NCBI GenBank assembly: GCA_036265325.1
Contig: DATAPH010000029.1
Location: 41,347-105,346, forward strand
DNA length: 64,000 nt
Origin: Actinomycetota bacterium
Lineage (GTDB): Bacteria > Actinomycetota > UBA4738 > HRBIN12
Reading direction: 5' to 3'
The translations under genes and the position numbers were made by a program. Positions within the stretch are counted from its first letter, which is position 1, and each line of letters begins with the position of its first letter. Positions 6,721 to 56,573 of this stretch are shown one piece after another. The notes under the pieces are model-generated. The model saw only the letters and a program-made list of their open reading frames with translations, made no database searches and was not told the DNA's origin.

Positions 6721-6735
6721 CCGGTGCCTATGGGA

Positions 6736-7107
6736 TCAGCGATCGGTGAAGGGAGCGTCGACCGAGGCGACCGGATCGCCCCGGCTCGCGGCGATCGTCA
6801 TCAAGATCGCTGCGGGTAGGAAGAAGATCCCGATCGTGAGCAGCGCTACCACGCAGAAGAGCCAGAGCAACACGGTTGCGACTACCCGCGTGACCGGGCG
6901 GTTGATCAGCACCGGGATCAGCGCAAGCACCACCGGAACAGACACCACGACGAAGATCCACGGCCCGTTGACGGCCAACGCTGAGGCGCCGTGACATGCC
7001 GCGTGTCCGCTCGTGCATGATGAGTAGGTCGGCGCGAACACCACGACGAGGGCGGCGACCACCGCCGCCCCAAGCGCGAGACGCGCGAACGTCCTGGAGG
7101 CAGACAT
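6736..7107 (-). CDS. Hypothetical 4-TM membrane protein between the SOS box and dnaE2
   Basis: 123 aa with four hydrophobic helices. It ends 15 nt before the dnaE2 start. The overlapping 192-aa ORF in another frame is Arg-rich shadow. Confidence 0.55.
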   Translation of the reverse strand: MSASRTFARLALGAAVVAALVVVFAPTYSSCTSGHAACHGASALAVNGPWIFVVVSVPVVLALIPVLINRPVTRVVATVLLWLFCVVALLTIGIFFLPAAILMTIAASRGDPVASVDAPFTDR

Positions 7108-7167
7108 CGACCGCAGCGTACGTCCGGGAGGTCGGCGTTCCGATCGTGCGTCGCCGGCGACGATCCG

Positions 7168-8244: not shown

Positions 8245-8324
8245 GAACCGCAGGCCTCCCACACGCTTCGGCGGTCCGGCGTACTATCCGGCCGTTCCCC
8301 GAGATCCCTGAGGAGGGCTGGGTT

Positions 8325-9246: not shown

Positions 9247-10509
9247 ATGTGGGAGGCTGCGGCCGTGGCGGCCACCGAGACCTTCGACGTGACGGCGATC
9301 AGGGCTCGGTTCCCCGCGCTCGGACGCACCGGACCCGACGGCCGGCCGTTCGTGTGGGCCGACGCGCCGGGCGGCTCGCAGATGGTCGACACGGCGATCG
9401 ACGCCATGACCGGCCGGATGCGGGCGGGTGCGTCCAACACGCACGGCGTCTTCGCGGTCAGCGAAGAGATCGACGAGTTGATCGACGATGCGCGTCGCGC
9501 CGGCGGCGACCTTCTCGGGTGTGATCCGGACGAGATCGTCTTCGGCCAGAACGCCACGTCGCTCCTGCTGCATCTGTCACGGTCGATCGGACGAACGTGG
9601 GGACCCGGCGACGAGGTCGTCGTCACACGCCTCGACCACGACGCGAACGTCCGGCCGTGGATCCTCGCGGCCGAGGACGCCGGTGCGACGGTTCGGTGGG
9701 TCGACGTCGTGCCCGGGGACGTGATCCTCGACCTCGACGACCTCGCAAGGGTGATCGGGCCGCGAACGAAGCTCGTCGCCTGCACCCTCGCGTCCAACGC
9801 CGTGGGCACCATGCCCCCCGTCGCCGACGTCGTCGCGCTCGCCAAGCAAGCCGGCGCGCTCGTGGCGCTCGACGGCGTCCACCTCGCGCAGCACCGTTCG
9901 ATCGACCTCCACGCGTTCGGCGCCGACATCGTCGCGAGCTCGCCCTACAAGTACTTCGGTCCGCACCAAGGGATGGCGGCGGTGCGCGCGGAGCTCCTCG
10001 CGTCGCTCACGCCCTACAAGCTGCGCGCGGCGCCCGACGACAACCCCGACCGCTGGGAGTCGGGCACGCAGAGCCACGAGGCGCTCGCCGGGACGATCGC
10101 GGCGATCGACTACATCGCCGAGGTCGGCGGTGGTGGTGACCGTCGTGACGCCGTCCGGCGTGGGTACGCCGCGTTCGAAGCACACGAACGCGACCTCGCC
10201 GCACGGTTCCTCGACGGGATCGCAGGGATCACAGGGGTTCGTCTGATCGGGATCGCCGACCGCGAACGGCTGGACGAGCGCACCCCCACGTTCGCGCTCC
10301 GCGTCGGCGACCAGCACCCGCTCGAGACATCCAGGATGCTCGGGGATCGCGGCATCTTCACCTGGGAAGGGCACTACTACGCCATCGAGGTGTTCGAACG
10401 GCTCGGATTACTCGAGACCGGTGGCGCCCTCCGCATAGGCTTTTGCCACTATCACACGCTCGACGAGGTCGATAGGGTGCTGGAAACCCTGGCCGACCTC
10501 GCGAGGTGA
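9247..10509 (+). CDS. Class V aminotransferase, cysteine desulfurase-like
   Basis: FDVTAIRARFPAL...WADAPGGSQ; fold-type I PLP enzyme; SSPYKYFGP lysine region. The start is set after the terminator hairpin. Confidence 0.8.
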   Translation: MWEAAAVAATETFDVTAIRARFPALGRTGPDGRPFVWADAPGGSQMVDTAIDAMTGRMRAGASNTHGVFAVSEEIDELIDDARRAGGDLLGCDPDEIVFGQNATSLLLHLSRSIGRTWGPGDEVVVTRLDHDANVRPWILAAEDAGATVRWVDVVPGDVILDLDDLARVIGPRTKLVACTLASNAVGTMPPVADVVALAKQAGALVALDGVHLAQHRSIDLHAFGADIVASSPYKYFGPHQGMAAVRAELLASLTPYKLRAAPDDNPDRWESGTQSHEALAGTIAAIDYIAEVGGGGDRRDAVRRGYAAFEAHERDLAARFLDGIAGITGVRLIGIADRERLDERTPTFALRVGDQHPLETSRMLGDRGIFTWEGHYYAIEVFERLGLLETGGALRIGFCHYHTLDEVDRVLETLADLAR

Positions 10510-18393: not shown

Positions 18394-18438
18394 GCGGCGC
18401 AGTCTAGTGGCGGCTTGGAGGAACGCTCGGTCGAACCC

Positions 18439-19587: not shown

Positions 19588-19617
19588 GCGGGCAGCCTAC
19601 AGAGCGCCTTCACGCCG

Positions 19618-20631
19618 CTAGCAGAGGATCTCGGGGATCTGCCACAACTCCGGCGGGAGCGTGCGCGGACCCTGGATCTCGGCGAGGGGCACGGGCTCGA
19701 TCCGGCCGGCGTGCAGGCCCATCATGACGTCCCAGCCGCCGTCGAACGCGCGATCGACGGCGTCGCGCCCGAGACGCGTCGCGAGCACGCGGTCGAACGC
19801 CACGGGTGAGCCGCCACGCTGCACATGGCCGAGCACCGTGACACGGGTCTCGAATCCGGTGCGGCGCCCGATCTCCTCCGCGACGATCGACCCGATCCCG
19901 CCGAGCCGCGGGAACCCGTTCGCGTCCACCGGATAGTCCGGGACCAACATGGACGCCTCGATCGGCGTCGCGCCCTCAGAGACGACAACGATCGCGAACG
20001 AGCGCCGCAGCACCACCGTTTCGCGGATCCGCCGGCACACGGCCTCGATGTCGAAGGGGTGCTCCGGCAGCAATATCACGTCGGCACCTGCCGCCACGCC
20101 CGCGGTGTAGCCGATCCAGCCGGCGTGGCGGCCCATGACCTCGCACACCATTACGCGGTCGTGGCTCTCTGCGGTGCTGTACAGGCGGTCGACGAGGTCG
20201 GTCGCGATCTGCGCGGCCGTATGGAACCCGATGCTTGCGTCGGTGCCGCAGACGTCGTTATCGATCGTCTTCGGGATGCCGATGACAGGCACGCTGACCC
20301 ACACGGCCTCTGCGATCGTGCCCTCGCCGCCGATCACCAGCATCCCGTCCAGCCGGTGCACGCCGAACGTCTCGCGGACGCGTTCGACGCCTCCCTCGAT
20401 CCGGTGCGGCTGCACGCCGCTGGTGCCGAGGAAGGTGCCGCCCCGCGGCAAGATGCCGCGGACATCGTCGATCGTGAGCTCCTTGGCTTCGTTGTCGAGG
20501 ACGCCTCGCCAGCCGTCGGCGAACCCGATCACCGTTGCGCCGCGTTCGGCGTGGCCGTACCGCACGATGGCGCGGAGCGCGGCGTTCAGCCCGGGGCAGT
20601 CACCGCCGCCCGTGAGGACCCCCAGACGCAT
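19618..20631 (-). CDS. pfkA: 6-phosphofructokinase paralog, probably ATP-dependent
   Basis: MRLGVLTGGGDCPGLNA. GGEGT (Gly at position 104) and PKTIDND. 337 aa, the size of actinomycete ATP-PFKs. Confidence 0.8.
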   Translation of the reverse strand: MRLGVLTGGGDCPGLNAALRAIVRYGHAERGATVIGFADGWRGVLDNEAKELTIDDVRGILPRGGTFLGTSGVQPHRIEGGVERVRETFGVHRLDGMLVIGGEGTIAEAVWVSVPVIGIPKTIDNDVCGTDASIGFHTAAQIATDLVDRLYSTAESHDRVMVCEVMGRHAGWIGYTAGVAAGADVILLPEHPFDIEAVCRRIRETVVLRRSFAIVVVSEGATPIEASMLVPDYPVDANGFPRLGGIGSIVAEEIGRRTGFETRVTVLGHVQRGGSPVAFDRVLATRLGRDAVDRAFDGGWDVMMGLHAGRIEPVPLAEIQGPRTLPPELWQIPEILC

Positions 20632-20696
20632 GCAGGCACCCTATCCGCCGGTCACGCGCGCGTCGGGAGCCGCCGGCGAGTCGGTACGATGTCGAG

Positions 20697-20846
20697 ATGC
20701 TTGCCCGTCTGATCCCCGACCACATCGGCCTGCTCGAAGGGATCTTCCTGTTCGGGTTGACGGTCCTCGCGGCGTTGGTCGGGGTCTTCGCGCTGTACGT
20801 GGTCGGGCAGCAGTTCCGCAACCCGGGCCGCTCCGACCGCCGCTAA
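20697..20846 (+). CDS. Candidate 49-aa single-TM peptide (below the ORF-track cutoff)
   Basis: MLARLIPDHIGLLEGIFLFGLTVLAALVGVFALYVVGQQFRNPGRSDRR. Nearly every third codon position is G/C. TACGAT lies 7 nt before the ATG, a leaderless-type -10 placement. Confidence 0.4.
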   Translation: MLARLIPDHIGLLEGIFLFGLTVLAALVGVFALYVVGQQFRNPGRSDRR

Positions 20847-21790
20847 GGCTCGCCCGCGACGATCTCCGTGCCGGCGGTCCCGGCCAGCGCCTCGGTCGCC
20901 TGCGCGAGATCGGCGATCACCGCCCTGCTCCCGCCTTCGCCGACGAAGTGAACCGCGGCTTCTACCTTCGGACCCATCGATCCCCGCCCGAACTCACCCT
21001 TCTTCAGGAGGCGCCGGGCCTCGGCGAGGTCCATGCGCTCGATGGCCTCGGGCATGAGCGAGCCGAAGCCGCGCTGCACGCGCGGCACGTCGGTAAGGAT
21101 CAACAGCACCTCCGCGTCGACCTCGCGCGCGAGGATCGCGGCGGCCAGGTCTTTGTCGACGACGCCCTCCTTGCCGATCAGACGCGGTCCCTTCTCGATC
21201 ACCGGCACGCCGCCGCCGCCCGCGGCGATCACGATCACCCCGTCGGCGATCAACTGGCGGATCACCGGCGTCTCGACGATCGAGTACGGCTTCGGGCTCG
21301 GCACGACGCGACGCCAGCCGCCGTGCGGGTCGGGTTTGACCGCCCACCCGCGCTGCTCTTCCCGCCGGTGCGCCTGCGCCTCGGTCAGGTACGGCCCGAC
21401 GTACTTCGTCGGGTTGCGGAACGCCGGGTCCTGAGACCGCACCCGCGTGAGCGTGAGGATCGTCGTGACCGGGCGCTCCGTGCCGCGCTCGAAGAAGACG
21501 TCGCCGATGGTGACCTGGAGCAGATAGCCGATCTGGCCTTGGCTCTCGGCGCCGCAGACGTCCAACGGCATGGGGTGCACCTGCTTCGCCGCCGCCTCCT
21601 GCTGCATCAAGATCCGGCCCACCTGCGGCCCGTTGCCGTGCGTGACGACGACCTCCCAGCCGGCGGCCGCGACGTCGGCGATCCGCTCCGCAGCCGTCCG
21701 CGCGGCGGCGTACATCTCCTCGTAGGTGTCGGGCGCGCCACGGCGCAGCAGCGCGTTCCCTCCGAGGGCGATCACGACCCGGTTCATCAC
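20843..21790 (-). CDS. arcC: Carbamate kinase
   Basis: MNRVVIALGGNALL...VVTHGNGPQVG; 315 aa. Confidence 0.88.
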   Translation of the reverse strand: MMNRVVIALGGNALLRRGAPDTYEEMYAAARTAAERIADVAAAGWEVVVTHGNGPQVGRILMQQEAAAKQVHPMPLDVCGAESQGQIGYLLQVTIGDVFFERGTERPVTTILTLTRVRSQDPAFRNPTKYVGPYLTEAQAHRREEQRGWAVKPDPHGGWRRVVPSPKPYSIVETPVIRQLIADGVIVIAAGGGGVPVIEKGPRLIGKEGVVDKDLAAAILAREVDAEVLLILTDVPRVQRGFGSLMPEAIERMDLAEARRLLKKGEFGRGSMGPKVEAAVHFVGEGGSRAVIADLAQATEALAGTAGTEIVAGEP

Positions 21791-21868
21791 GTTCCTTCCT
21801 GCGCAGCGCGTCGGTGGACGAAGGTCACGATATCGGCGGTCCGCCCGGTTCCCTGGAGGAGGCGGACG

Positions 21869-22692: not shown

Positions 22693-23301
22693 CTACCCGG
22701 AGCGGTCGCCCTGCCCCTGGAGGTCGCCCGGTTCGTCGATGTCGCGGAGCGTCAACCGGCCCGGGTCGAGCGCCGTCCACGTCGCCTCGTCGATCACGGC
22801 GGTGCGCAGCGAGTCGAGCGCGTCGCGCAACCGGCGACGGCCTGCATGCAGGAGGGCGTGTACCGCGTCGGCGGCCGGCCACGTGCGAAGCGCGATCGGC
22901 AACGGACGAGGCCGGTCGCCATCGGCAAGCGCAGCGGCCTCGACGCTCGCCTCGTCGAGCGTGTCGAGCAAGAGCCGAAGGACCGAGGGCTGGAGCTCGG
23001 GCATGTCCCCGCCCGCAACGAGCACCTGGTCGGTTCGGACCGCAGCGAGGAGCCCCGTGTGCAACCCGGCGAGCGGCCCCTCGCCTTCCTGCAGATCGTG
23101 CGTCACCGTCACGTCGTCCGGGAGGTCCTCCCGTTCGACGCCGGGAGGGACGACGACAATCACGCCGTCGGTGACGGCCGCGACGGCATCGACCGCGCGG
23201 CGAACCAGCGGCACGCCGTCCAGCGACGCACCGAGCTTGTCCGATCCGAACCGGGTAGAGCGTCCGCCGGCGAGCACGATGCCGCTACGGAGCGGCGGCA
23301 T
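22693..23301 (-). CDS. mobA: Molybdenum cofactor guanylyltransferase
   Basis: GIVLAGGRSTRFGSDKL...LVAGGDMP. Lies directly downstream of the FDH genes. Confidence 0.85.
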   Translation of the reverse strand: MPPLRSGIVLAGGRSTRFGSDKLGASLDGVPLVRRAVDAVAAVTDGVIVVVPPGVEREDLPDDVTVTHDLQEGEGPLAGLHTGLLAAVRTDQVLVAGGDMPELQPSVLRLLLDTLDEASVEAAALADGDRPRPLPIALRTWPAADAVHALLHAGRRRLRDALDSLRTAVIDEATWTALDPGRLTLRDIDEPGDLQGQGDRSG

Positions 23302-24244
23302 CGTCCCGGCGCTTCCGCCGCTGCACGAACTGGAAGCCGAACCGTCCCTTGACGCACAGATGGCCGTGCGTCACGAACTGGTCGGCCGGCGAGCCGACCT
23401 TCACGATCGTGTTGTCCTGGACGTGCACCTCGAGCTCGCACCCCACGCCGCAATACGGGCAGATCGTGTTGGTGACGGTCTGCGCGGACTCATCCCAGGT
23501 CCCCGCCTCGCGCATGTCGTGTTCGCTCTTGAACATCAGCGCGCCCGTCGGGCAGACACCGATGCAATTGCCGCAGTAGACGCACGCGCTCGCGTCCAGC
23601 GGCACCGCGTACTCGGTCGAGATGCGGGCATCGAACCCGCGCCCTGCCACCGCGATGGCGAACGTGTGCTGCGCGTCGGTGCCGCACGCCTCGACGCACT
23701 TGTAGCAGAGCACGCAGCGTCCGTAGTCGCGCACGTAGAGATCGTTGTCGATCTTGACCGGCTGCTCGACCGTCTCCGCCACGGTTGGGTCGGGATCGTG
23801 GTGGTGGCCCGGCTCACGCCCGTCGCGCTCCCCCGCCGGCATCGGCTCCATCGCGGGGCCGAACCGCTCCGGGTCCGCCGCGTACTCGTCCTGCCACCGG
23901 TGCCAGTCCTCGTTCGCGAGCGACGTGTCCACGCTCGAACCGAGGAACTCCATGACGAGCTTCCGGGAATGCCGCACGCGCTCGGTGTCGGTCGAGATCC
24001 TCATTCCGGCCTCGGCCCGGCGCGAGCATGCGGGCACGAGCACCCGCGAGCCCTCCACCTCGACGACGCACACCCGGCATGCGTTGATCGGCGTCAAGTT
24101 GTCGGCGTAGCACATCGTCGGCGTGTCGACGCCGGTCGCGCGGCACGCGTCGAGGATCGTCGAGCCTTCGGGGACACGCACCGTCGTCCCGTCGATCTCG
24201 ACGTCCATCAACTTCCGTGGGGTTTCGACCGGGATGGTGCTCAT
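23285..24244 (-). CDS. Formate dehydrogenase alpha, N-terminal Fe-S module only (2Fe-2S, 4Fe-4S clusters and the Mo/W-bis-MGD-type 4Fe-4S domain)
   Basis: NuoG-like CRVCVVEV; ferredoxin motifs CVLCYKCVEAC and CVYCGNCIGVCPTGAL. It ends with CPYCGVGCELEV...LCVKGRFGFQFVQ, then stops where the molybdopterin domain normally begins. ATGA overlap with the upstream gene. Confidence 0.85.
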   Translation of the reverse strand: MSTIPVETPRKLMDVEIDGTTVRVPEGSTILDACRATGVDTPTMCYADNLTPINACRVCVVEVEGSRVLVPACSRRAEAGMRISTDTERVRHSRKLVMEFLGSSVDTSLANEDWHRWQDEYAADPERFGPAMEPMPAGERDGREPGHHHDPDPTVAETVEQPVKIDNDLYVRDYGRCVLCYKCVEACGTDAQHTFAIAVAGRGFDARISTEYAVPLDASACVYCGNCIGVCPTGALMFKSEHDMREAGTWDESAQTVTNTICPYCGVGCELEVHVQDNTIVKVGSPADQFVTHGHLCVKGRFGFQFVQRRKRRDDAAAP

Positions 24245-26082
24245 GCGGTCGCCTCCCCGTCGAACAGGCCGAACGTCGCGATCGCCGACTGAACCGCGCT
24301 CGCGGCTGTCTGGCCCAGCCCGCAGATCGACGCGTCCCGCATGACGGCAGCGACGTCGCCGAGGAGCGCGACTTCATCGGCGATCGAGCCGATCGTTCGG
24401 CCGATCACAAGTCGGTGTAGAGCCTCCTCCTGTCGAACCGTGCCGACACGACATGGCACACATTGCCCGCAACTCTCGTCTCGGAAGAAGCGCGCGATCC
24501 GCAGGCACAGGTCGACGAGGTCGGCGTCCTCGTCGAGGACCATCACGACGCCGGAGCCAAGCGTGTAGCCACCGGCGCGGGCGTCCTCGAACGTGAGGCG
24601 AGCGTCGAGCCGGTCGGGCCCCACGAACCCGCCTGCGGCTCCCCCGAGCAAGATGGCCTTGATCGTGTTGCCGCCGCGAACGCCGCCGGCCGCCTCGATC
24701 ACCTCGCTGAGCGTGACGCCGTGCGGATGTTCATACACGCCAGGCCGCGCGACGTGGCCGGACAGACAGAACAACCGCGTTCCGGTGGAGTCGGCCGTGC
24801 CCACCGACGCGTACTCGTCGACGCCGAGGTTGAGGATGGGAAGCACGTTGATCAGCGTCTCGACGTTGTTGATCGACGTGGGCTTGCCGAACACGCCGTG
24901 CGTCACCGGGAACGGCGGCTTGTTCCGAGGCTCACCGCGCTTGCCTTCGATCGAGTTGAACAGCGCCGTCTCTTCCCCGCAGATGTAGGCGCCGGCGCCG
25001 CGTCGGAGCTCGATGTCGAATGACCGACCGGGTCCGAACACACCGGCGCCGAGCAGACCGGCGTCACGCGCCTCTTCGATCGCCTTCGACACCCGTTGCG
25101 TCGCGAGCGGATATTCGCCCCGGATGTAGAGATATCCCTGCTCCGCGCCGGTCGCGAACCCGGCGATGGTGAGCGCCTCGATCACCGCGAACGGATCGCG
25201 TTCCATCACCACCCGGTCCTTGAACGTGCCGGGCTCCGACTCGTCGGCGTTGCAGATCACGTACTTCGGGGTCACGCGTTGATCCGCAACACCGGTCCAC
25301 TTCACGCCCGTTGGGAACGCCGCGCCGCCTCGGCCCAACAGCTTCGCCGCGGTGACGAGTTGGATCACCTCGGCCCCGCCGAGCTCGAGCGCACGCGGCA
25401 GGGCCGTGTACCCGCCGAGCGCGCGGTAGCCCTCGAGCGACGTGGCGGAGGGATCGCCAACGCGGGCGAGCAACCGGTCTCCCGCGTAGACGGGCTCTCG
25501 CGGGACGCTCGTGTAGGCGACCGCGCCCTCGATCCGCTGGTCACGTATCGCCTGCATCACCCGCGGCGGACTCGCCGCGACGTCTGTCAGGACGACGTCG
25601 TCACGCGACTCCCCCGCCCGCTGAACCAGCGCGGCGGGGGCGCGCTCGCACTGCCCGAGACACGGGCTCGAGACCACCACGGCCTCCTCCGGATGCACGT
25701 CGCGCCGACATGCGTCGAGCAGCTCACGGCCTCCTGCGACACGACACGCGAGGTCGTCGCACACGTGAACCACGGTCGGTGCCCGTTCCTCGAGACTGAA
25801 CATCGCGTAGAACGTCGCGACGCCATAGGCCTCCGCGGGCGGGACGGTCAGACGCTCGCAGACATAGTTGAGGCCACCCTCGCTGACCCACCCGACGGCG
25901 CCCTGCAGTGCGTGCAATGCCGGCAGCAGCAACGTCCGCCGGTCCTCGGGGGCGCGAGACACGCGAAGATCGGCCGAGGTCCGCGCGCCGCCCTCCCAAC
26001 TCGTCTCGGGCGGACCGAGAAGTGCGTCGACGGCAGCTCGTTCGGCGGGGGCCGCCTCCGCCGTCATGAGGTGGAGATCCAC
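24241..26082 (-). CDS. NuoE-NuoF fusion (NAD-reducing diaphorase subunit of formate dehydrogenase, FdsG/FdsB-like)
   Basis: NuoE-type 2Fe-2S region (HVCDDLACR...SPCLGQCERAP). NuoF motifs GRGGAAFPTGVKW, ICNADESEPGTFKDR and ESCGQCVPCRVGT. The GTG start lies 1 nt after the upstream stop. Confidence 0.9.
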   Translation of the reverse strand: MDLHLMTAEAAPAERAAVDALLGPPETSWEGGARTSADLRVSRAPEDRRTLLLPALHALQGAVGWVSEGGLNYVCERLTVPPAEAYGVATFYAMFSLEERAPTVVHVCDDLACRVAGGRELLDACRRDVHPEEAVVVSSPCLGQCERAPAALVQRAGESRDDVVLTDVAASPPRVMQAIRDQRIEGAVAYTSVPREPVYAGDRLLARVGDPSATSLEGYRALGGYTALPRALELGGAEVIQLVTAAKLLGRGGAAFPTGVKWTGVADQRVTPKYVICNADESEPGTFKDRVVMERDPFAVIEALTIAGFATGAEQGYLYIRGEYPLATQRVSKAIEEARDAGLLGAGVFGPGRSFDIELRRGAGAYICGEETALFNSIEGKRGEPRNKPPFPVTHGVFGKPTSINNVETLINVLPILNLGVDEYASVGTADSTGTRLFCLSGHVARPGVYEHPHGVTLSEVIEAAGGVRGGNTIKAILLGGAAGGFVGPDRLDARLTFEDARAGGYTLGSGVVMVLDEDADLVDLCLRIARFFRDESCGQCVPCRVGTVRQEEALHRLVIGRTIGSIADEVALLGDVAAVMRDASICGLGQTAASAVQSAIATFGLFDGEATA

Positions 26083-26083
26083 G

Positions 26084-28009
26084 CTAGGAGGCTACCTCCG
26101 CGCCGTGCCCGTTCAGCTTCTCCACACGGATCGCGGTCGCCTTGAACTCGGCGGTGCCGGACTTCGGGTCGGTCGCCTCGATCGTCAGCCGGTTGGTCTC
26201 GACCTCGTCCGGGAAGTGCATCGTCATGAACGCGAGCCCTGGCCGAAGGGCGCTGGAGACGTGCACCGGCGCGACGACCTCCCCGCGGCGCGACGACACG
26301 AGCACCTGCTCGCCTTCGACGAGCCCGAGTGCCTCGGCGTCTTCCTGCGAAAGCTCGACCGACTCGGGACGTCGCAGCGGCGAGGTGTACGCGTTGGTCT
26401 GCACGCCGGTGTTGTAGGAATCGAGCCGCCGTCCCGTCGTCAGCCGGATCGGGAACTGCTCGGTCAGCTCGTCCACCGGCGGCTCATCGTCGACCACGCT
26501 GAACGGCGCCGGGCGCAACCGCTCGTCCGGATCCTCAGACCACAGGCGCGCGTGCAGGTACTGCGTCCCCGGGTGGTCGACGTCCCAGCACGGCCATTGC
26601 GCGCCGCCCATCTGGTCCAGCCGCTCCCATGTCATCCCCTGGTGCATCGGCGAGAGCGACCGCAGCTCGTCCCACGCCTCGCGCGGCGTGAGGTCTCCCC
26701 ACTCGTACCCGAGGCGCTTCGCGAGCTGGGCGATGATCCAGATGTCGTCCTTGGCCTCACCGGGCGGATCGAGCGCCTTGCGGACCCGCTGCACCCGTCG
26801 CTCGGAGTTGGTGACGGTTCCCTCGGACTCGAACGCCGAATTCGACGCCGGCAACACGACATCGGCGATCTCTGCGGTCTTCGTCATGAAGATGTCCTGC
26901 ACGATCAGCGTGTCGAGGTTCTCCAGCAGCTTGGTCGCGTGCTGGCTGTCCGCCTCCGAGCTGACTGGGTTCTCACCGATGCAGTAGATCGCGGTCAGCT
27001 CGCCCTCTTCCATCGCGTGGAACATCTCGCTGAGATGCCAGCCGTACCGCGGGATGATCTCGGTGTCCCACGCAGCGTTGAATCGCGCCCGTGCGTCGTT
27101 ATCGCGGATGATGTCCTGGAAGCCCGGGAGCTTGTTCGGGATCGCGCCCATGTCGCCGCCGCCCTGCACATTGTTCTGGCCGCGCAGCGGGTTCAACCCG
27201 CTCCCGTACGTGCCGACGTGACCGGTCAGCAAGGCGAGGTTGATCAGCGCCAGGACGTTGTCAGTACCGTTGTGGTGTTCCGTGATGCCGAGCGTCCAGC
27301 AGATCATGGCCCGGTCGGCCTTCGCGTACCGGTGCGCGACCTCGCGGATCACCTCGGCGGGGATGCCCGTCACCGCCGCGCCGCGCTCGAGCGTCCAATC
27401 TGCCACGCTCTCGGCGTATTCCTCGAAGTTCTCCGTCCCCCGCTCGATGAACGTACGGTCGTGTAGGTCGCTCGCGATGATCTCGCGGGCGATCGTGTTC
27501 GACAGTGCGACATCCGTGCCCACATCGATGCCCAACCAGAGATCGGCGAACGCCGCGGACTCCGTGCGGCGAGGGTCGACCACGATCAGCTCGGTGCCGC
27601 TCTCGATCCCGCGCAGGACATGGTGGAAGAAGATGGGGTGCGCGGCGCGCGCGTTCGAACCCCACATCAGGATGAGGTCGGTGTGCTCGACCTCTTCGTA
27701 TGAGCTGGTACCGCCACCGGCACCGAAGACGGTCGCCAGACCGGCGACCGAAGGTGCGTGTCAGGTGCGGTTGCAGCTATCGATGTTGTTGGTTCCAAGG
27801 ACCTGACGAGCGAACTTCTGCGCAACGAAGTTCATCTCGTTGGTGGCCTTCGAACAGCTGAAGATCCCCGCTCCCCAGCCGGGGTTGCGATCCATCGCGT
27901 GGCGCAGCCCCTCGGCGGCCCGGGCCAGGGCCTCGTCCCAGGTGGCGGTGCGCAGCTCGCCGTGCTCGCGAACCATCGGCTCGGTTAGCCGGGTCATCGT
28001 TGCAGACAT
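26084..28009 (-). CDS. fdhA: Formate dehydrogenase catalytic (molybdopterin) subunit, selenocysteine-containing. It joins ORF-track entries 27761..28009 and 26084..27667 across an in-frame TGA.
   Basis: Both ORFs share one frame (1926 nt = 642 codons). Read-through gives GTNNIDSCNRT-U-HAPSVAGLATVFGAGGGTSSYEEVEHTDLILMWGSNARAAHP. This matches the FdhF active-site block GTNNVDCCARV-U-HGPSVAGL. Confidence 0.85.
27717..27754 (-). other. Bacterial SECIS-like hairpin 3' of the UGA
   Basis: mRNA reads UGA CAC GCA CCU UCG GUC GCC GGU CUG GCG ACC GUC UUC GGU GC. Apical stem GGUCGCC/GGCGACC with a GGUCU loop; lower stem GCACC/GGUGC. The GGUCUG sits at the same codon offset as in the E. coli fdhF SECIS (from memory). 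Confidence 0.7.
27758..27760 (-). other. In-frame UGA recoded as selenocysteine
   Basis: TGA sits at the exact position of the catalytic Sec/Cys of formate dehydrogenases (..CNRT-U-HAPSV..). Confidence 0.8.
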
Positions 28010-28130
28010 CGATGCAGGCTCTCCTTCCTCCGGACGTTCGGATGTGCGTATCGTACGACCGGGTCAGCCGGCGTCGGGAACGGCGTCTGGCGGACGTGCT
28101 GACCAACGTTCAGCTGCGAGGGAGGTGCTC

Positions 28131-28589
28131 ATGAAGCTCGCCGAAGCGCTCCAGCTCCGGTCCGACGTCCAGAAGCGGATCCAACAGCTCCGACAGCGGA
28201 TCGCGCTGAGCGCACGCACGCAGGAGGGCGAGCAGCCCGCCGAGGACCCGAACGCGCTGCTGGCCGAGGTCGCCGGGCTGACCGACCAGCTCGAGTCGCT
28301 GATCACCGCGATCAACCGGACGAACGTCCGCACCGAGCTCGAGCCGGGCCTCTCGATGACCGATGCGCTCGCGCGGCGCGACGTGCTGCACCTCCGGCGC
28401 TCGATCTGGGTGGAGGCCGCCGGGAATGCATCGGTCCGTCAGGACCGGTACTCACGCTCCGAGGTTCGGTTCATGACCCCGCTCGACGTGGCGGCGCTGC
28501 ATCGCGAGGCGGACGAGCTGGCCAAGCGCGCTCGCGAGCTCGACGCCAAGATCCAGCAGGCGAACTGGAACACCGACCTGGAGGGCTGA
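28131..28589 (+). CDS. Small coiled-coil protein, DIP1984-family-like (start moved to ATG 28131)
   Basis: GAGGGAGG RBS upstream. The N-terminus MKLAEALQLRSDVQKRIQQLRQRI...EGEQPAEDPNALL resembles the DIP1984 family as I recall it. Confidence 0.65.
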   Translation: MKLAEALQLRSDVQKRIQQLRQRIALSARTQEGEQPAEDPNALLAEVAGLTDQLESLITAINRTNVRTELEPGLSMTDALARRDVLHLRRSIWVEAAGNASVRQDRYSRSEVRFMTPLDVAALHREADELAKRARELDAKIQQANWNTDLEG

Positions 28590-30292: not shown

Positions 30293-30885
30293 CCACGCGC
30301 GCGACCGGCTTCGACACCGTTCCGAAGGAGGCACGCCCGTTCCACGGGCAGGCTGCCGGCCTGGTCACACGGACGATCGCCAACGTCGTCGACGTCGTCG
30401 TCGTCGCCGGGTTGCTCGGCGCCTGCTACCTGGGGGTCTCAGGCGTGCTGTTCCTGCGACGCGGCGCCGGTTTCACGTTCCCGATCGTGACCTACCGGAT
30501 GGCCTATCTCGTGGGCTTCGCGGGCTGGGTGATCTACATGACCTTCGGATGGCGCACCAATGGCCGCACCTACGGCGACCAGCTGCTCGGCCTTCGCGTC
30601 CGCAAGACGGATGGGGAGGACGTCGGGGGTATGCGCGCCCTGATCCGTGCACTGTTGTGCGGCATCGCACCGCTGCTTCTCGCATGGTGCGCCATCAGCA
30701 AGGACCAACGCAGCGTCCAAGACCTGATCGTCGGAACGCATGTGATCTACGACTGGGGCGGGTCGCGCCGGCGGCGCGTCTCAGACGACGCGGTCCGCGT
30801 GGGTGTAGACGTTGCACCGCCCGTCCCGGACGAACCCGACGACGGTCACGCCGAGCCGCTCCCCCGCGTCGACGGCGAGCGATGA
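30289..30885 (+). CDS. RDD-family membrane protein
   Basis: AGLVTRTIANVVDVVVV...RTYGDQLLGLRVRKTDGEDV...ALIRALLC; three TM helices. The C-terminal 35 codons overlap the fdhD 3' end on the other strand. Confidence 0.75.
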   Translation: MTTRATGFDTVPKEARPFHGQAAGLVTRTIANVVDVVVVAGLLGACYLGVSGVLFLRRGAGFTFPIVTYRMAYLVGFAGWVIYMTFGWRTNGRTYGDQLLGLRVRKTDGEDVGGMRALIRALLCGIAPLLLAWCAISKDQRSVQDLIVGTHVIYDWGGSRRRRVSDDAVRVGVDVAPPVPDEPDDGHAEPLPRVDGER

Positions 30886-31617
30886 CGGCGCACTGACCGC
30901 GCTCACCACGGGGATCCCCGCGACCGCCGCCTTCTGCACGATCTCGAACGACGCACGACCCGACACCTGCAAGACGCGATCCGACAGCGGGACGCGTCCG
31001 GCGAGCAGCTGTTCGCCGATGACCTTGTCCACGGCGTTGTGACGGCCGACGTCCTCACGGACCGAGAGCACAGACCCATCGGCGTCGAACAGACCGGCGG
31101 CGTGCAACCCGCCGGTGCGGTCGAACACACGCTGGGCTTCCCGAAGTCGGTCGGGCATCGAGACAAGCACGTCCGCGTCGACCGTGAAGCCGGGTGGGAC
31201 CACGTCGCACCGCACGACGATGTCGTCCAGCGACGCTTTCCCGCAGACGCCGCACGACGACGTAGCGAAGAAGTTCCGGGAGAGCTGCTCGGCGTCGAAC
31301 GGGCGCGCGAGTGTCACCGTCACGACGTTGTACTGCTGTTCCTCGTCGTCGAGGTCGTCGCAGTAGGCGACACGGCGGATATCGTCGGAAGTCACGAGGC
31401 CCTCGGTGAACAGGAATCCGGCGGCCAGTTCGAAGTCGCCGCCGGGCGTGCGCATCGTCACGGCGACGCGGTGGGCTTCCTGACCCGGCCCTTGTGACCG
31501 GATCTCGAGAGGCTCCTCGGTCGCAAGCGCGTCGGCGCGCTCCGAGCGCGCGTCCCCGTTGACCGCGACCACGCGCACAGGGGTCACGTTGCGTCGAACC
31601 TCTTCGGGAGCGGCCAT
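30781..31617 (-). CDS. fdhD: Formate dehydrogenase accessory sulfurtransferase FdhD (only the last 278 codons of the 991-aa ORF)
   Basis: MAAPEEV...TMRTPGGDFELAAGFLFTEG...SSCGVCGKASL...GGLHAAGLF...VGRHNAVDKVIG. The rest of the 991-aa ORF is antisense shadow of fhs. Confidence 0.88.
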   Translation of the reverse strand: MAAPEEVRRNVTPVRVVAVNGDARSERADALATEEPLEIRSQGPGQEAHRVAVTMRTPGGDFELAAGFLFTEGLVTSDDIRRVAYCDDLDDEEQQYNVVTVTLARPFDAEQLSRNFFATSSCGVCGKASLDDIVVRCDVVPPGFTVDADVLVSMPDRLREAQRVFDRTGGLHAAGLFDADGSVLSVREDVGRHNAVDKVIGEQLLAGRVPLSDRVLQVSGRASFEIVQKAAVAGIPVVSAVSAPSSLAVDAGERLGVTVVGFVRDGRCNVYTHADRVV

Positions 31618-31740
31618 ACCGCAAGTATGACGCTCCGAACAGCATGACCAGAAGTCAGACCGCCGGTCACGTTGATTCTCGGGGCGGCACCACGCTGCGC
31701 TAAGGTCCGGTGACCCCACCGTCGCAAGGAGTGTTCGCAC

Positions 31741-33411
31741 ATGCTGTCCGGACTCGAGATCGCCCAAGCAGCCGAGCTGCGGGCCATCGCAGAGGTCGCT
31801 GCCGACGCCGGCATCGAACCCGGCGAGCTTCGGCCGTACGGAGCGTCCCGAGCGAAGGTCTCGCTGTCCATCCTGGACCGGCTGGCGGACCGGCCCAACG
31901 GCAAGCTCGTGATCACGACGGCGATCACGCCGACCAAGGCGGGCGAAGGCAAAACGACGACGTCGGTCTCGCTGACCCAAGGCCTCGGATCGATCGGCAA
32001 GGACGTGATCCTCGCGCTTCGTGAACCGTCCATGGGCCCCGTCTTCGGGATCAAAGGCGGCGGCACCGGCGGCGGGTACGCACAGGTGGTGCCGATGGAG
32101 GAGATCAACCTCCACCTCAACGGGGACTTCCACGCGATCACCGCGGCGCACAATCTGCTCTCGGCGGCGCTCGACGCATCGATCTACCACGGCAACCCGC
32201 TCGACATCGATGCGCAGACGATCACCTGGCCGCGCACGCTCGACGTGAACGACCGCGAGCTCCGAAACACCGTGATCGGCCTCGGCGGGAAGGTCCACGG
32301 TGTGCCACGCCAGGAGGGGTTCGTGATCACCGCGGCGTCGGAGATCATGGCGATCCTCGCGCTCGCGAGCGACCTGCAGGACCTGCGCGCACGCCTCGGG
32401 CGGATCATCGTCGCGTCGACCCGCAACGGCCGTCCGGTGACCGCCGACGACCTGAAGGCAGCGGGCGCGATGACGGTGATCATGCGCGACGCGATCGAGC
32501 CGAACCTCGTGCAGACCCTCGAGCACCAACCGGTGTTCCTGCACGCCGGTCCCTTCGGCAACATCGCCCACGCGAACAACTCGATCATCGAAGACCGGAT
32601 CGCGCTCAAGCTCGCCGGATACGTCATCACCGAGGCCGGGTTCGCGAGCGACTTGGGCTTCCAGAAGTTCTGTGACATCGTCTGTCGGTTCGGTGGGTTC
32701 GCCCCCAGCGCCGGCGTGCTCGTGACGACGGTCAGGGCAACCAAGTCGCACGGCGGGATGGCGTTCAACGACCTCGGCACCGAGGACCTCGAGGCGCTCA
32801 AGCGCGGGATCGACAACCTGACCGCACATATCGGCATCCTTCGCGAATACGGCCTGCCGTGCGTCGTCTCGATCAACAACTTCCCGAGCGACACCGCCGC
32901 AGAGATCGCGTTGATCCGTGAGCTGGCGGTCGGCGCCGGCGCCGAGACGGTCGTCGTGAACCGCGGGTTCGCCGAGGGCGGCGCGGGCGCGACCGAGCTG
33001 GCCGAGGCCGTCGTCGAGGCGTGCGAACGGCCGAACACGTTTCACCAGCTCACGCCCGACGGCACCCCGCTCAAGGATCAGATCGAGGCGATCGCGACGC
33101 GGCTGTACGGCGCCGACGGCGTCGACTACCTCCCGCAGGCCGAGAAGGACATCGCGCGCATGGACGAGCTCGGGTTCGGCAGCGTGCCGGTGTGCATGGC
33201 CAAGACCCACCTTTCGCTCAGCCACGACCCGCTGATGCTCAACCGGCCGCGCGGCTTCCGACTCCCCGTGCGCGGCGTCGTGCCGAGTGCCGGCGCGGGA
33301 TTCGTCGTGGTGTTGTGCGGAGATATGCAGCGGATGCCGGGCCTCGGCGCGACGCCGAACTTCATGGGCGTCGACATCGACGCCGACGGCCGCACCGTCG
33401 GCTTGTTCTGA
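31741..33411 (+). CDS. fhs: Formate--tetrahydrofolate ligase
   Basis: ITPTKAGEGKTTTSVSL P-loop; 556 aa; FHAITAAHNLL and LHAGPFGNIAHA blocks. Confidence 0.93.
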   Translation: MLSGLEIAQAAELRAIAEVAADAGIEPGELRPYGASRAKVSLSILDRLADRPNGKLVITTAITPTKAGEGKTTTSVSLTQGLGSIGKDVILALREPSMGPVFGIKGGGTGGGYAQVVPMEEINLHLNGDFHAITAAHNLLSAALDASIYHGNPLDIDAQTITWPRTLDVNDRELRNTVIGLGGKVHGVPRQEGFVITAASEIMAILALASDLQDLRARLGRIIVASTRNGRPVTADDLKAAGAMTVIMRDAIEPNLVQTLEHQPVFLHAGPFGNIAHANNSIIEDRIALKLAGYVITEAGFASDLGFQKFCDIVCRFGGFAPSAGVLVTTVRATKSHGGMAFNDLGTEDLEALKRGIDNLTAHIGILREYGLPCVVSINNFPSDTAAEIALIRELAVGAGAETVVVNRGFAEGGAGATELAEAVVEACERPNTFHQLTPDGTPLKDQIEAIATRLYGADGVDYLPQAEKDIARMDELGFGSVPVCMAKTHLSLSHDPLMLNRPRGFRLPVRGVVPSAGAGFVVVLCGDMQRMPGLGATPNFMGVDIDADGRTVGLF

Positions 33412-33416
33412 GCGAT

Positions 33417-33860
33417 CTACGCCACCTCGTCGTCCGGCGGCATCACGCAGAACTCGTTGCCCTGCGGATCGAGCATCACGCACCAGACGCCGCCGTCGGC
33501 CTCGGCCCAGTTGTGGATCGTCGCGCCGAGGTTCTCGAGCCGCTCGACCTCCGCTTCGAGATCCTCGTCGGCGAGCACGTCGAGGTGCACGCGGTTCTTC
33601 GTCACCTTGTCCTCGGGCACCTCGGTGAAGAACAGCACCGGCAGCTCGGAGTCTTCCGGCGGCTCGACCATCACGGTCGGATCGTCCTCGGGATCGACGA
33701 TGCCTTTCGCTGCGAGGCGCGCGAGCTCGACCTCGTCGTAGGCGCCGACGTTCCACCCGAGCGCCTCGGCCCAGAACCGCGCGAGCGGGGCGGCATCACG
33801 GCAGTCGAAGACGATGGCGTCGATCCGCACGGCCGGAGCCTGCGCCGCGGGGCCTCGCAA
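33417..33860 (-). CDS. VOC (glyoxalase-like) family protein
   Basis: IDAIVFDCRDAAPLARFWAEALGW...VHLDVL...EVERLENLGA. Confidence 0.7.
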   Translation of the reverse strand: MRGPAAQAPAVRIDAIVFDCRDAAPLARFWAEALGWNVGAYDEVELARLAAKGIVDPEDDPTVMVEPPEDSELPVLFFTEVPEDKVTKNRVHLDVLADEDLEAEVERLENLGATIHNWAEADGGVWCVMLDPQGNEFCVMPPDDEVA

Positions 33861-33882
33861 CGCAAGTCCCGCGGCGATCCGC

Positions 33883-35561: not shown

Positions 35562-35579
35562 GAGCGGAGGATAGTCGCC

Positions 35580-36659: not shown

Positions 36660-36684
36660 GCGATGGCTCCTTCCCGCCGCGCGG

Positions 36685-37770: not shown

Positions 37771-37803
37771 GGCCGCCGTTCTACCGCACGCCTGAACGCG
37801 GGT

Positions 37804-55385: not shown

Positions 55386-56573
55386 ATGGCCGACCTGTTT
55401 CTCGACGCCGGCAGCGGCATCCCGATCGCGCCGGCGGCGCGGGAGGCGATGCTCGCCGCGCTCGACGCGGTCGGTGACCCGCTGCAGATCACGGCACCCG
55501 GCCGCGCCGCCCGCGCGGTCCTGGAGACCGCCCGAAGCGCAGTTGCCGACACGATCGGCGCTCAGCCCGACGAGGTCGTCTTCACCTCCGGCGGCACCGA
55601 ATCGATCGCACTCGCGATCGATGGGGTGACGTCGGCGGTCCGCGGCAGCACGGTGGTCACCAGCGCGATCGAACATCCGGCGGTCACGGCAACGATCGGC
55701 CGACTAGCGGGCCGTGGCATCACGACCAAGGCGATCGGAACCGATGCCGACGGCCGCGTCGACCTCGACAGGTTCGCCGCCGCGGTTCGCGCGCCAGGCG
55801 TCGCCCTGGCCACGATCCACCATGGCAACCACGAGCTCGGGACGATGCAGCAGATCGGTGAGGCGGCGCGACTCGCGCACGCTGGAGGCGTGCCGTTTCA
55901 CACCGACGCGGTGCAGACGGTCGGCCGACTGCCGATCGACGTCCGGGCGCTCGAGGTTGATCTGCTCACGATGTCGGGCCACACCTTCGGCGGCCCGTCC
56001 GGCGTTGGCGCCCTCTACGTGCGGCGCGGAGTCGAACTGGCGCCGGTGCTGCTGGGCGATGACCGCGAGGGTGGACGTCGCGCGGGCACGCCGAACCTCC
56101 CGGGGATCGCGGGGATGGGGGCTGCACTCACGGCGACCCACGCGACGATGGCCGACGACGCGGCCACCGCGTGGACGCTCACCGCGACGCTGCGCGACCG
56201 GATCGCGGCTCGCGTCCCCGGCGCGACGGTCCACGGCCATCCGACTCACCGCGTGCCGCACCTCGTGTGCTTCTCCGTCGCCGGCCTCGACGCCGCGACG
56301 CTCGCGATGGCTCTCGACGACCGTGGTGTCCACCTCGGCGTGGGGTCACCCGCCACCGGCCGGCCCGAAGACCCCTCCCCCGTGCTGGCGCAGCTCGGCC
56401 ATCCCGAGACGCCCTCGTTCCGGATCGGCGTCACGCCTGCCACGAGCGACGACGACGTCGCGCGCTGTGTGCACGTGCTGGAGGAAGCCGCCGGGGAGCT
56501 CGAGATCGTCGCGCGTGGCGCCGCAGACGCCATGGCGCGGTTCCAACCGCCGGACGCCGGGACGGATACGTGA
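55386..56573 (+). CDS. Cysteine desulfurase (NifS/IscS-like class V aminotransferase)
   Basis: [12 protein letters not shown]...[15 protein letters not shown]...HTDAVQ...[19 protein letters not shown]. Confidence 0.85.

Follow-up and report, generated by a model that had tools for sequence, protein, structure and literature searches.

A formate dehydrogenase gene of Actinomycetota with an in-frame UGA predicted to encode selenocysteine and a conserved downstream hairpin

In the window considered here, a 64-kb stretch of DNA from an uncultured soil Actinomycetota bacterium, the region running from 28009 to 26084 on the minus strand is very probably (about 0.93) one gene, whose product would be the catalytic subunit of a Mo/W-bisPGD formate dehydrogenase (FDH), a cytoplasmic, NAD(H)-linked enzyme with selenocysteine (Sec) as metal ligand. 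Comparison of sequences indicates that the in-frame TGA of this gene, fdhA, is a genuine Sec codon accompanied by a conserved recoding hairpin. At this locus two fragments, or a supposed pseudogene, would be replaced by one selenoprotein of 641 residues.

The finding is correct but ordinary, as it concerns a well-known kind of gene that is routinely cut by gene callers. No bacterial selenoprotein is more widespread than FdhA (822 organisms; PMC5029168), and the use of Sec in Actinomycetota has already been documented (PMC13449736), so that the recoding itself is no news. Of modest practical value is that fdhA is almost universally mis-called in an abundant, uncultured soil clade: as had been anticipated, the callers cut the gene in two, and among the 120 homologs closest to it in the database, 119 are fragments of 527-581 aa starting just past the TGA. 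Since these entries are truncated, metagenomic surveys are expected to under-count both FDH and selenium dependence in soil Actinomycetota.

Reading frame, active site and conservation of the codon

From the ATG at 28009 to the TAG at 26086-26084, fdhA (26084..28009, minus strand) is a single frame of 641 sense codons with a sole internal TGA. The open reading frames 27761..28009 and 26084..27667 share this frame and strand, and the description of the TGA as their in-frame separator in the earlier note was right; its position, however, was given as 27758-27760, which is 3 nt off, because the end coordinate in the ORF list counts the stop codon. The TGA (codon 83, predicted to be read as Sec) occupies 27761-27763 on the minus strand, while 27758-27760 is the CAC (His) that comes next. 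Translation of the frame gives the read-through peptide ...GTNNIDSCNRT-U-HAPSVAGLATVFGAGGG..., identical to the one previously reported, and the predicted tryptic peptide across Sec83 is T-U-HAPSVAGLATVFGAGGGTSSYEEVEHTDLILMWGSNAR. UGA also closes 29 of the 48 genes in the window as an ordinary stop, being the commonest stop codon there, which shows that the codon is not reassigned.

The product contains the Pfam domains Molybdopterin (PF00384, residues 7-432, 6.6e-71) and Molydop_binding (PF01568, residues 522-625, 2.3e-28), and aligns with residues 61-688 of E. coli FdhF at 39.9% identity over 619 columns. In this alignment the TGA falls at the position of Sec140 of FdhF, in agreement with the earlier placement at the catalytic site, and U140, H141 and R333 of FdhF correspond to U83, H84 and R276 of FdhA. 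The catalytic Arg is therefore kept, and U83-H84-A-P fits the U-H-x-P motif, which has been tabulated for FdhA (PMC13188914). The FdhA chain matches residues 307-936 of the FdsA structure 6tg9_A and lacks the FS0 [4Fe-4S] domain, its ORF beginning at the equivalent of FdhF residue 61. The equivalog model for Fdh-alpha, TIGR01591, scores 643.7 bits over profile positions 51-672, below its curated cutoff of 666.25, because the FS0 domain is missing and not because the catalytic part has diverged; the model NF041513 (formate_DH_Act) gives 169 bits against a cutoff of 1400. The absence of this N-terminal [4Fe-4S] domain, which is carried by a separate downstream gene, was overlooked in the earlier note.

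The orthologs bearing the TGA amount to 82 sequences, made up of the window, an identical contig from a metagenome and a further 80 orthologs; they form 80 distinct rows. TGA stands at the equivalent of codon 83 in 80 of 80 GTDB species-representative loci and in two metagenome contigs (L001 and L002, the latter with an FdhA that is 83% identical), at protein identities spanning 64-93%, whereas among the orthologs examined only one, L003 (protein P0045), carries the Cys codon TGC, so that 82 of 83 have TGA. This exception (CNRTCHAPS, 70% identity) lies in the same operon and thus provides a Cys/Sec ortholog pair. Both flanks of the codon are intact in all the TGA orthologs, the ORF before it having at least 82 codons and the one after it 541-605, and the mean pairwise differences at codon positions 1, 2 and 3 are 0.18, 0.12 and 0.31 upstream and 0.13, 0.06 and 0.41 downstream. 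Judged from these substitution patterns, both sides of the TGA are under purifying selection. In many orthologs an in-frame GTG is found five codons after the TGA, a position at which the window has GTC.

Regarding other selenoproteins, a scan of the window for in-frame TGAs with coding-like flanks gave no second candidate, returning only ordinary gene junctions at 6736 and 35580; the scan is a weak one, its thresholds having missed fdhA itself.

The hairpin downstream of the UGA codon

A candidate bacterial SECIS element lies within the coding sequence at 27720..27760 (minus strand). The hairpin that had been proposed 3' of the UGA is borne out by folding, since the 46 nt next to that codon fold at -24.4 kcal/mol (z = -2.94) and only 2 of 200 shuffled sequences do as well. 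Its apical stem is CGGUCGCC/GGCGACCG (27750-27743 paired with 27737-27730), closed by the loop GGUCU (27742-27738), and beneath it a lower stem GCACC/GGUGC (27757-27753 paired with 27724-27720) can be drawn. The offset of the GGU-CUG codons, which had been likened to that in E. coli, is confirmed by the fdhF gene of strain K-12 (TGA CAC GGC CCA TCG GTT GCA GGT CTG): each gene has GGT-CTG as codons +7 and +8, with a distance of 18 nt from the UGA to the loop.

Conservation of the hairpin, whose absence would have spoken against the proposal, extends to all the TGA orthologs, the six core apical pairs being formed in 82/82 sequences. The stem pair 30:42 is CG in 61 sequences, GC in 21 and broken in none, with covariation of synonymous third positions (codons +5 and +9). 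The covariation score is 0.137; shuffles give 0.072, with 0 of 500 attaining the observed value, and slid registers at most 0.073. Moreover, entropy across the 82 sequences is zero at the third positions of codons +6, +7 and +8, compared with 1.5-1.9 bits at four-fold codons nearby; neither the GGUCU loop nor the GGT-CTG codons show any variation. In the Cys ortholog the corresponding codons are GGC CTC and the hairpin is gone (z = +0.83), which is what a role of the hairpin in Sec insertion would predict.

The lower stem is another matter. Among the 80 distinct sequences its middle pair is kept in only 52, and the remaining four pairs, which the codons fix, are the same throughout; no function is claimed for it, and it is only the apical hairpin that the comparison supports well.

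With respect to published models, bacterial SECIS elements have been delimited by a loop of 3-9 nt, an upper stem of 4-16 bp, a UGA-to-loop distance of 16-37 nt and a minimum free energy of -7.5 kcal/mol or lower, the first or second loop nucleotide being a G that precedes G or U (PMC13188914). The present element, with a 5-nt loop starting GG, an 8-bp stem, a distance of 18 nt and -24.4 kcal/mol, lies within these limits of loop, stem, spacing and energy. At gathering thresholds, Rfam returned no SECIS match in the whole window. In a permissive search of 181 nt, SECIS_3 (E = 7e-4) and SECIS_2 (E = 0.039) were the two best of 4227 families, matching at full length with the UGA in register (27708-27768), although with scores of 25.4 and 21.5 bits, far below the respective gathering values of 63 and 70. 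These models were presumably built from narrow seed sets; the SECIS_2 consensus agrees with the E. coli fdhF sequence.

Selenocysteine machinery and alternative readings of the codon

As the earlier note had stated, selA, selB, selC and selD are not seen in the window: no tRNA gene and no SelA, SelB or SelD domain is found in its 64 kb. Such genes do adjoin fdhA in some relatives, five of which (L067, L069, L076, L077 and L081) have a tRNA-Sec gene within 10 kb of it. A SelB-type GTPase motif is likewise found near fdhA in five relatives, and Pfam identifies SelA and SelB in L077 and SelB together with a SelD-like AIRS protein in L067. In the closest relatives (L002-L029), neither a tRNA-Sec gene nor a SelB-type GTPase motif is present within 10 kb of fdhA. 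When the SelA of L077 was compared with a protein collection, the 120 matches listed had about 71-79% identity, apart from its own entry, and most of those with a name belonged to Solirubrobacterales or Solirubrobacteraceae; among the matches listed, none placed SelA on the large contigs from the lineage to which the window belongs. As for the class V aminotransferases of the window (9247..10509 and 55386..56573), both suggested earlier as possible selenocysteine lyases, they have nothing Sec-specific, reaching 101 and 78 bits with the selenocysteine lyase model SclA against its cutoff of 525; they are of the generic cysteine desulfurase type (TIGR01976 at 433 bits, and NifS/IscS-like).

Several other explanations for the TGA have to be considered. 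The least probable, to the point of being negligible, is that a nonsense mutation has inactivated fdhA and that its halves are decaying. An in-frame TGA where TGA is the commonest stop codon, in a window devoid of sel genes, is what such a pseudogene would present, but the same codon recurs in 82 of 83 orthologs at 64-93% protein identity, the frames on either side are undisrupted, substitutions fall mostly at third codon positions and synonymous sites near the hairpin either stay fixed or covary. Neither pattern would be expected of a pseudogene. Independent decay of the halves was looked for and not seen, the TGA being kept and the halves intact in 82 sequences, and the 80 distinct rows indicate that the orthologs are not assembly copies of one sequence. 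Hardly more credible is the proposal that translation stops at the UGA, releasing an 82-aa peptide, and restarts downstream (at GTG in many orthologs, at ATG 27667 here) to yield a Sec-less protein of 527-557 aa. This is exactly what the gene-caller models depict, and the GTG found in frame in many orthologs would suit it; the window, however, has GTC at that codon, and the 30 codons that follow its TGA include no ATG, GTG or TTG. These 30 codons, conserved as protein, are among the most conserved of the chain and include His84, the restarted product would be deprived of the metal-ligand residue aligned to Sec140, and both the third-position invariance of GGT-CTG and the compensatory pair would be left unexplained.

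Finally, a near-cognate or suppressor tRNA could insert Cys, Trp or Arg at UGA-83, independently of Sec machinery, with the hairpin merely stimulating read-through; this is the likeliest of the three, yet still very improbable. In its favour, no Sec machinery is seen in the 64-kb window, and stable downstream RNA structures can promote read-through in general. On the other hand, the loop sequence and spacing are those of the SelB-binding fdhF SECIS, tRNA-Sec, selA and selB adjoin the orthologous gene in several relatives, and the hairpin disappears in the ortholog that has a sense codon for Cys in place of the UGA. Decoding of UGA-83 as Sec is thus the preferred reading. By analogy with the E. 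coli model, when the ribosome reaches the UGA at 27761-27763 the downstream mRNA would form the SECIS (18-nt spacing, a stem of 6-8 bp and the GGUCU loop), which would be bound by SelB-GTP-Sec-tRNA(Sec), so that selenocysteine would be inserted instead of termination occurring. Both the binding of SelB and the actual incorporation of Se at UGA-83 are, in this sense, predictions.

The split alpha subunit and comparison with known systems

All the neighbouring genes involved lie on the minus strand, with one exception. Downstream of fdhA, 24241..26082 encodes a 613-aa NuoE-NuoF fusion, the diaphorase subunit, with [2Fe-2S], FMN/NAD(H) and [4Fe-4S] sites (Pfam 2Fe-2S_thioredx, Complex1_51K, SLBB and NADH_4Fe-4S; the nuoF and nuoE families of NCBIfam), which matches NuoF, HydB and FDH beta subunits in the PDB. 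It is followed by the gene for a 319-aa Fe-S subunit resembling the N-terminal part of NuoG (23285..24244), with the Pfam domains Fer2_4, Fer4 and a C-terminal Molybdop_Fe4S4 (FS0, residues 256-308, CPYCGVGC...LCVKG). This protein matches residues 26-306 of FdsA (6tg9_A), and its residues 260-312 match positions 1-53 of the TIGR01591 profile with 55.2 bits. The conserved block ends with mobA, for a molybdenum cofactor guanylyltransferase (22693..23301; Pfam NTP_transf_3), where the NCBIfam models give E-values of about 1e-23 with scores under their cutoffs; mobA is syntenic in many loci. On the other side of fdhA lies fdhD, for the FDH accessory sulfurtransferase (30781..31620, start codon approximate; Pfam FdhD-NarQ, NF001943 with 316 bits against a cutoff of 269), and, divergent from it on the plus strand, fhs for formate-tetrahydrofolate ligase (31741..33411; Pfam FTHFS, E = 8e-241), whose synteny with fdhD-fdhA is shared by the closest relatives.

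An FdsA-type alpha subunit is therefore split exactly at the 306/307 junction into two genes with the nuoEF gene between them, and the order catalytic subunit, NuoE-NuoF, 319-aa NuoG-like protein is kept in all loci that extend far enough for it to be seen. Against a 50%-identity representative library, the matches of the 319-aa protein above roughly 50% identity were short or of about 320 aa, and fused, full-length FdsA-like chains (about 840-980 aa, spanning the 319-aa query) were found at 35-43% identity; this search returned mostly metagenomic fragments and has little bearing on the spread of the split. Keyword literature searches gave nothing relevant on the split alpha-subunit architecture or on selenocysteine in Thermoleophilia, which in neither case is proof of absence.

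The enzyme would apparently consist of three polypeptides: the catalytic Mo/W subunit with Sec83, His84 and Arg276, the NuoE-NuoF fusion with its FMN/NAD site and the 319-aa NuoG-like protein, whose C-terminus may supply the proximal [4Fe-4S] cluster (FS0) and a conserved Lys in trans; in FdhF and FdsA both are part of the catalytic chain itself. FdhD and MobA, encoded nearby, would mature the cofactor, and the adjacent formate-THF ligase may tie FDH to the C1 metabolism of folate. The three-subunit assembly, NAD as redox partner and the catalytic direction are likewise inferred. It can be suggested, tentatively and at a little short of even odds, that the locus represents a variant of the NAD-linked FDH of FdsA type that arose by fission and permutation and has not been described, in which a Sec subunit devoid of FS0 receives the cluster and the Lys in trans from the NuoG-like protein encoded two genes downstream. 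The variant would be fixed across dozens of species-level soil Actinomycetota lineages, would occur as well in some contigs binned to Chloroflexota, Acidobacteriota and other phyla, and would have been missed by annotation twice, through the split at the TGA and through the TIGR01591 score below cutoff. If true, it would offer a natural experiment on the wiring between the Mo/W site and the first Fe-S cluster.

Among the known systems, E. coli FdhF and its fdhF SECIS (SECIS_2, RF01988) share with the window the active-site Sec, His and Arg, the UGA followed by CAC and a loop starting with GGUC. Unlike FdhA of the window, FdhF begins with an FS0 domain of its own (residues 1-60), and the E. coli hairpin shows a bulged U and a tetraloop, GGUC, in place of the uninterrupted G+C-rich stem and the GGUCU loop found here. 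The partner of FdhF is hydrogenase 3, not a NuoEF module.

The same set of modules is found in the NAD-dependent FdsGBA(D) enzymes of Rhodobacter capsulatus and Cupriavidus necator (PDB 6TG9/6TGA, 6VW7), with NuoF- and NuoE-like partners and an FdhD-type sulfurtransferase. FdsA, however, is one polypeptide, whereas in the window it is split and the order permuted, the catalytic part coming first and the Fe-S part third, and NuoE is joined to NuoF in one chain. Those Fds enzymes that have been characterised rely on Cys, while Sec is predicted here. The tungsten enzyme FDH1 of Methylobacterium extorquens (Fdh1AB; PDB 7E5Z, 7VW6) is matched through both its beta (7e5z_B, E = 2.5e-96) and its alpha subunit (E = 2.3e-124), the latter being unsplit (989-995 aa) in contrast to that of the window. 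Its beta subunit is a fusion of the NuoE/NuoF type, and FDH1 is a Cys enzyme.

Finally, in mycobacteria FDH is the predicted sole selenoprotein, with the SECIS immediately 3' of the UGA and selC directly upstream of selA-selB, and annotation fails since UGA is the commonest stop (PMC13449736). Mycobacteria belong to the same phylum as the source of the window, and the arrangement of selC upstream of selA-selB is also found in the relative L077, but the mycobacterial enzyme, mostly annotated as a 1064-aa protein of the FdoG/FDH-O type, belongs to another FDH subfamily than FdhA of the window.

Reading frame and product of fdhA

The gene for the catalytic formate dehydrogenase subunit, fdhA, reads in a single frame from an ATG at 28009, ahead of which stands GGAGGAAGGAGA, to a TAG at 26086-26084 (minus strand), and comprises 641 sense codons and one internal TGA, codon 83. 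The earlier note had placed the ORFs 27761..28009 and 26084..27667 in one frame, and both do lie inside 28009-26084 (minus strand); its position for the TGA, 27758-27760, is that of the following CAC codon, the TGA itself being at 27761-27763, because the end coordinate in the ORF table counts the stop codon. The read-through peptide it had derived, GTNNIDSCNRT-U-HAPSVAGLATVFGAGGG, was confirmed.

The product contains the Pfam domains Molybdopterin (residues 7-432) and Molydop_binding (residues 522-625), its best NCBIfam model is TIGR01591, formate dehydrogenase subunit alpha (E = 2.7e-193), and its top matches among solved structures are FdhA/FdhF-type enzymes and FdsA-type alpha subunits. 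Alignment with E. coli formate dehydrogenase H (FdhF; 39.9% identity, 619 columns) pairs Sec140, His141 and Arg333 with U83, H84 and R276, which bears out the proposal that the TGA occupies the catalytic position. The catalytic ORF alone scores 643.7 bits against TIGR01591 and narrowly misses the curated cutoff of 666.25, since it is devoid of the domain for the proximal [4Fe-4S] cluster (FS0); this shortfall probably explains database names like 'molybdopterin-dependent oxidoreductase, partial', borne for instance by one NCBI entry (P0098). A Sec-aware pipeline keyed to this model may still fail to name or repair fdhA.

Divergent from fdhA lies a DUF6847 gene (28128-28589, plus strand). Its listed ORF, 27840..28589, extends across the start of fdhA, which lies on the other strand, and the Pfam domain begins only at residue 107, so that the real start is probably an ATG near 28130; owing to this overlap, antisense tblastn 'hits' in related loci are artefacts.

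Conservation of the TGA codon and the SECIS hairpin

The evolutionary evidence, drawn from comparison of orthologous sequences, is decisive in indicating that the TGA of fdhA is decoded. With each GTDB species represented by a single genome, a scan yielded 80 loci (protein identity 64-80%), in metagenome-assembled genomes labelled Actinomycetota, Actinomycetes, Thermoleophilia, Gaiellales or Solirubrobacterales, with a few binned to other phyla. The comparison of TGA and TGC among relatives, suggested earlier, gave TGA in 80/80 loci as well as in the metagenome contigs L001 (identical to the window) and L002, and TGC in one ortholog only (L003). Wherever the TGA is present, the upstream frame stays open over at least 82 codons and the downstream frame over 541-605, and the N-terminus ahead of the TGA, M...RLTEPMVR...WDEAL...FSCSKATNEMNF, is conserved. 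On either side of the TGA, substitutions fall mainly at third positions, the mean pairwise differences at codon positions 1/2/3 being 0.18/0.12/0.31 upstream and 0.13/0.06/0.41 downstream. Moreover, the window has no ATG, GTG or TTG within 30 codons after the TGA, and these same codons are strongly conserved as protein; they are therefore translatable only by UGA read-through. UGA is not reassigned, as it terminates 29 of the 48 window genes.

Gene callers had been expected to fragment fdhA, and among the 120 closest database homologs listed (75-93% identity), 119 are indeed partial models of 527-581 aa with a query coverage of 81-86%. All seven short models retrieved start just 3' of the TGA, and the lone full-length homolog in that list (646 aa) has Cys at the Sec position.

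Near-identical operons, with the same TGA and SECIS (the RNA hairpin 3' of the UGA that directs Sec insertion) and an FdhA identity of 64-71%, were also found on ten contigs (L030, L036, L039, L055, L072, L074, L076, L080, L081 and L082) binned to Vicinamibacteria, Acidobacteria, Candidatus Sulfotelmatobacter, Chthonomonadia, Verrucomicrobiia, Gemmatimonadota and Chloroflexota, a distribution owed either to horizontally transferred operons or to contigs binned wrongly.

The fold described for the mRNA 3' of the UGA, an apical stem CGGUCGCC/GGCGACCG with a GGUCU loop and a lower stem GCACC/GGUGC, was recovered, the 46 nt after the UGA having a fold energy of -24.4 kcal/mol (z = -2.94; 2/200 shuffles as stable). 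The fetched E. coli K-12 fdhF reads TGA CAC GGC CCA TCG GTT GCA GGT CTG, and the offset stated for it proved correct: in both genes GGT-CTG forms codons +7/+8 and the UGA-loop gap is 18 nt. In an alignment of 82 sequences, gap-free in the relevant region, the six core stem pairs are intact throughout. One of them links two synonymous sites, the third positions of a Val and an Ala codon, and is C:G in 61 sequences, G:C in 21 and broken in none; two more alternate, U:A with U:G and U:G with C:G. The stem covariation score was 0.137, against 0.072 for shuffles (0/500 reach the observed value) and at most 0.073 for slid registers. Furthermore, the third positions of codons +6/+7/+8 (GxC GGT CTG, the stem end and loop) are invariant in 82/82, whereas four-fold degenerate codons nearby show 1.5-1.9 bits of entropy. 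The Cys ortholog has GGC CTC at the GGT-CTG site, and the fold of its RNA is no more stable than that of shuffles (z = +0.83).

The element agrees on every point with the published bacterial SECIS model (PMC13188914), with a 5-nt loop starting GG, an 8-bp stem, 18-nt spacing and an MFE well below -7.5 kcal/mol. A permissive Rfam search of 181 nt against 4227 families ranked SECIS_3 (E = 7e-4) and SECIS_2 (E = 0.039) first, both full length with the UGA in register and both far under their gathering scores. The lower stem lacks good support: codons fix four of its pairs, and the fifth is kept in 52/80 distinct sequences.

A split alpha subunit and its surroundings

The first residue of the fdhA product corresponds to FdhF residue 61, and the N-terminal FS0 domain is absent. 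Downstream on the minus strand follow a NuoE-NuoF fusion (613 aa, 26082-24241) and a NuoG-like protein (319 aa, 24244-23285) with a 2Fe-2S domain, ferredoxin-type 4Fe-4S domains and a C-terminal Molybdop_Fe4S4 domain, the last of which contains the FS0 residues, four Cys and one Lys, in CPYCGVGC...LCVKG. In R. capsulatus FdsA (6TG9), the alpha subunit of an NAD-dependent enzyme, residues 26-306 are matched by the 319-aa protein and 307-936 by the catalytic ORF; likewise, positions 1-53 of the TIGR01591 profile fall in the former and 51-672 in the latter. As read from these matches, the predicted alpha subunit (23285-28009, minus strand) is of FdsA type, split at the equivalent of FdsA 306/307 and with its genes permuted. 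The order catalytic subunit, NuoEF, NuoG-N is shared by all related loci (among L002-L083) whose length suffices to reveal it, and the Cys ortholog is no exception. Extra sequence of 1-2.6 kb separates the catalytic gene from nuoEF in L076 (11902-13113), L080 (5732-6756) and L082 (6139-8703), two of them binned to Chloroflexia/Chloroflexota and one to Candidatus Sulfotelmatobacter; in the remaining loci little or no sequence lies between the two genes, except for a few with shortened nuoEF matches.

Genes for cofactor maturation lie nearby, fdhD (30781-31620, over its NCBIfam cutoff) and mobA (23301-22693), and the operon is surrounded by formate-THF ligase, formiminotransferase-cyclodeaminase parts, two GcvT-like genes, 5-formyl-THF cyclo-ligase and MetH. 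Most likely the enzyme would convert formate and CO2 into one another, using NAD(H) and linked to folate C1 metabolism. Folate/C1 genes are dense at 30781-39200 and 60963-63998, with MetH at the window end; the formiminotransferase-cyclodeaminase consists of separate FTCD_C and FTCD_N genes, the GcvT-like genes are aminomethyltransferases, and a glyoxalase-like gene and an RNase T-like exonuclease are interspersed. Downstream of the fdh block (17329-21868, minus strand) are an amino-acid kinase family gene, two tandem phosphofructokinase paralogs and a GntG/threonine-aldolase-type PLP enzyme, a run that also follows the operon in L002 and, with one PFK gene, in L003.

Elsewhere in the window, a minus-strand cluster (2239-7167) resembles the imuA'-imuB-dnaE2 mutagenesis cassette of actinobacteria: a 143-aa ORF with no Pfam match precedes genes for a DnaE2-type Pol III alpha (3508-6735) and an IMS/ImuB-like Y-family polymerase (2239-3507). 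The 720-aa product of 48161-50323 (plus strand), which combines five Calx-beta repeats with a LapA-like domain, is probably a surface or adhesion protein.

Selenocysteine machinery and known systems

The window was said to hold no sel genes, and no tRNA gene and no SelA, SelB or SelD domain was found in it (~58 predicted proteins); Rfam at gathering thresholds gave zero matches over its whole length. The two class V aminotransferases put forward as selenocysteine lyase candidates turned out to be generic cysteine desulfurase-type proteins, far under the SclA cutoff of 525 bits: that at 9247-10509 (plus strand) is a TIGR01976 'cysteine desulfurase-like protein' (433 bits, over its cutoff; SclA 101 bits), and that at 55386-56573 (plus strand) is NifS/IscS-like (SclA 78 bits). 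Among relatives, ARAGORN located tRNA-Sec (anticodon UCA) within 10 kb of fdhA in five loci (L067, L069, L076, L077 and L081), confirmed by Rfam RF01852 (69-72 bits vs a gathering score of 47), and a SelB-type GTPase motif is present in five relative loci. SelA and SelB adjoin selC in L077, and in L067 selC is flanked by a SelD-like protein and SelB (all Pfam-confirmed). In the closest relatives (L002-L029), neither a tRNA-Sec gene nor the SelB-type motif was found within 10 kb of fdhA, and a search for SelA on their large contigs gave no match among those listed. We infer Sec machinery in the window organism. In L069, from a Solirubrobacteraceae metagenome-assembled genome, fdhA is preceded at a distance of ~2 kb by a c-di-AMP riboswitch (ydaO/yuaA type; 8132-8283, minus strand; 68.6 bits vs a gathering score of 38).

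Overall, the interpretation as a selenoprotein formate dehydrogenase is supported by the conservation of the TGA, the hairpin and the active site. Fission and permutation of the alpha subunit, of which keyword literature searches found no description, is the sole element of this locus with some novelty. The gene with its in-frame Sec codon belongs to an already known class: FdhA is the most widespread bacterial selenoprotein, often the sole one per genome (PMC5029168, PMC13188914), and ~40% of mycobacterial genomes encode Sec machinery with formate dehydrogenase as sole selenoprotein, where the same annotation problem arises since UGA is the commonest stop codon (PMC13449736).
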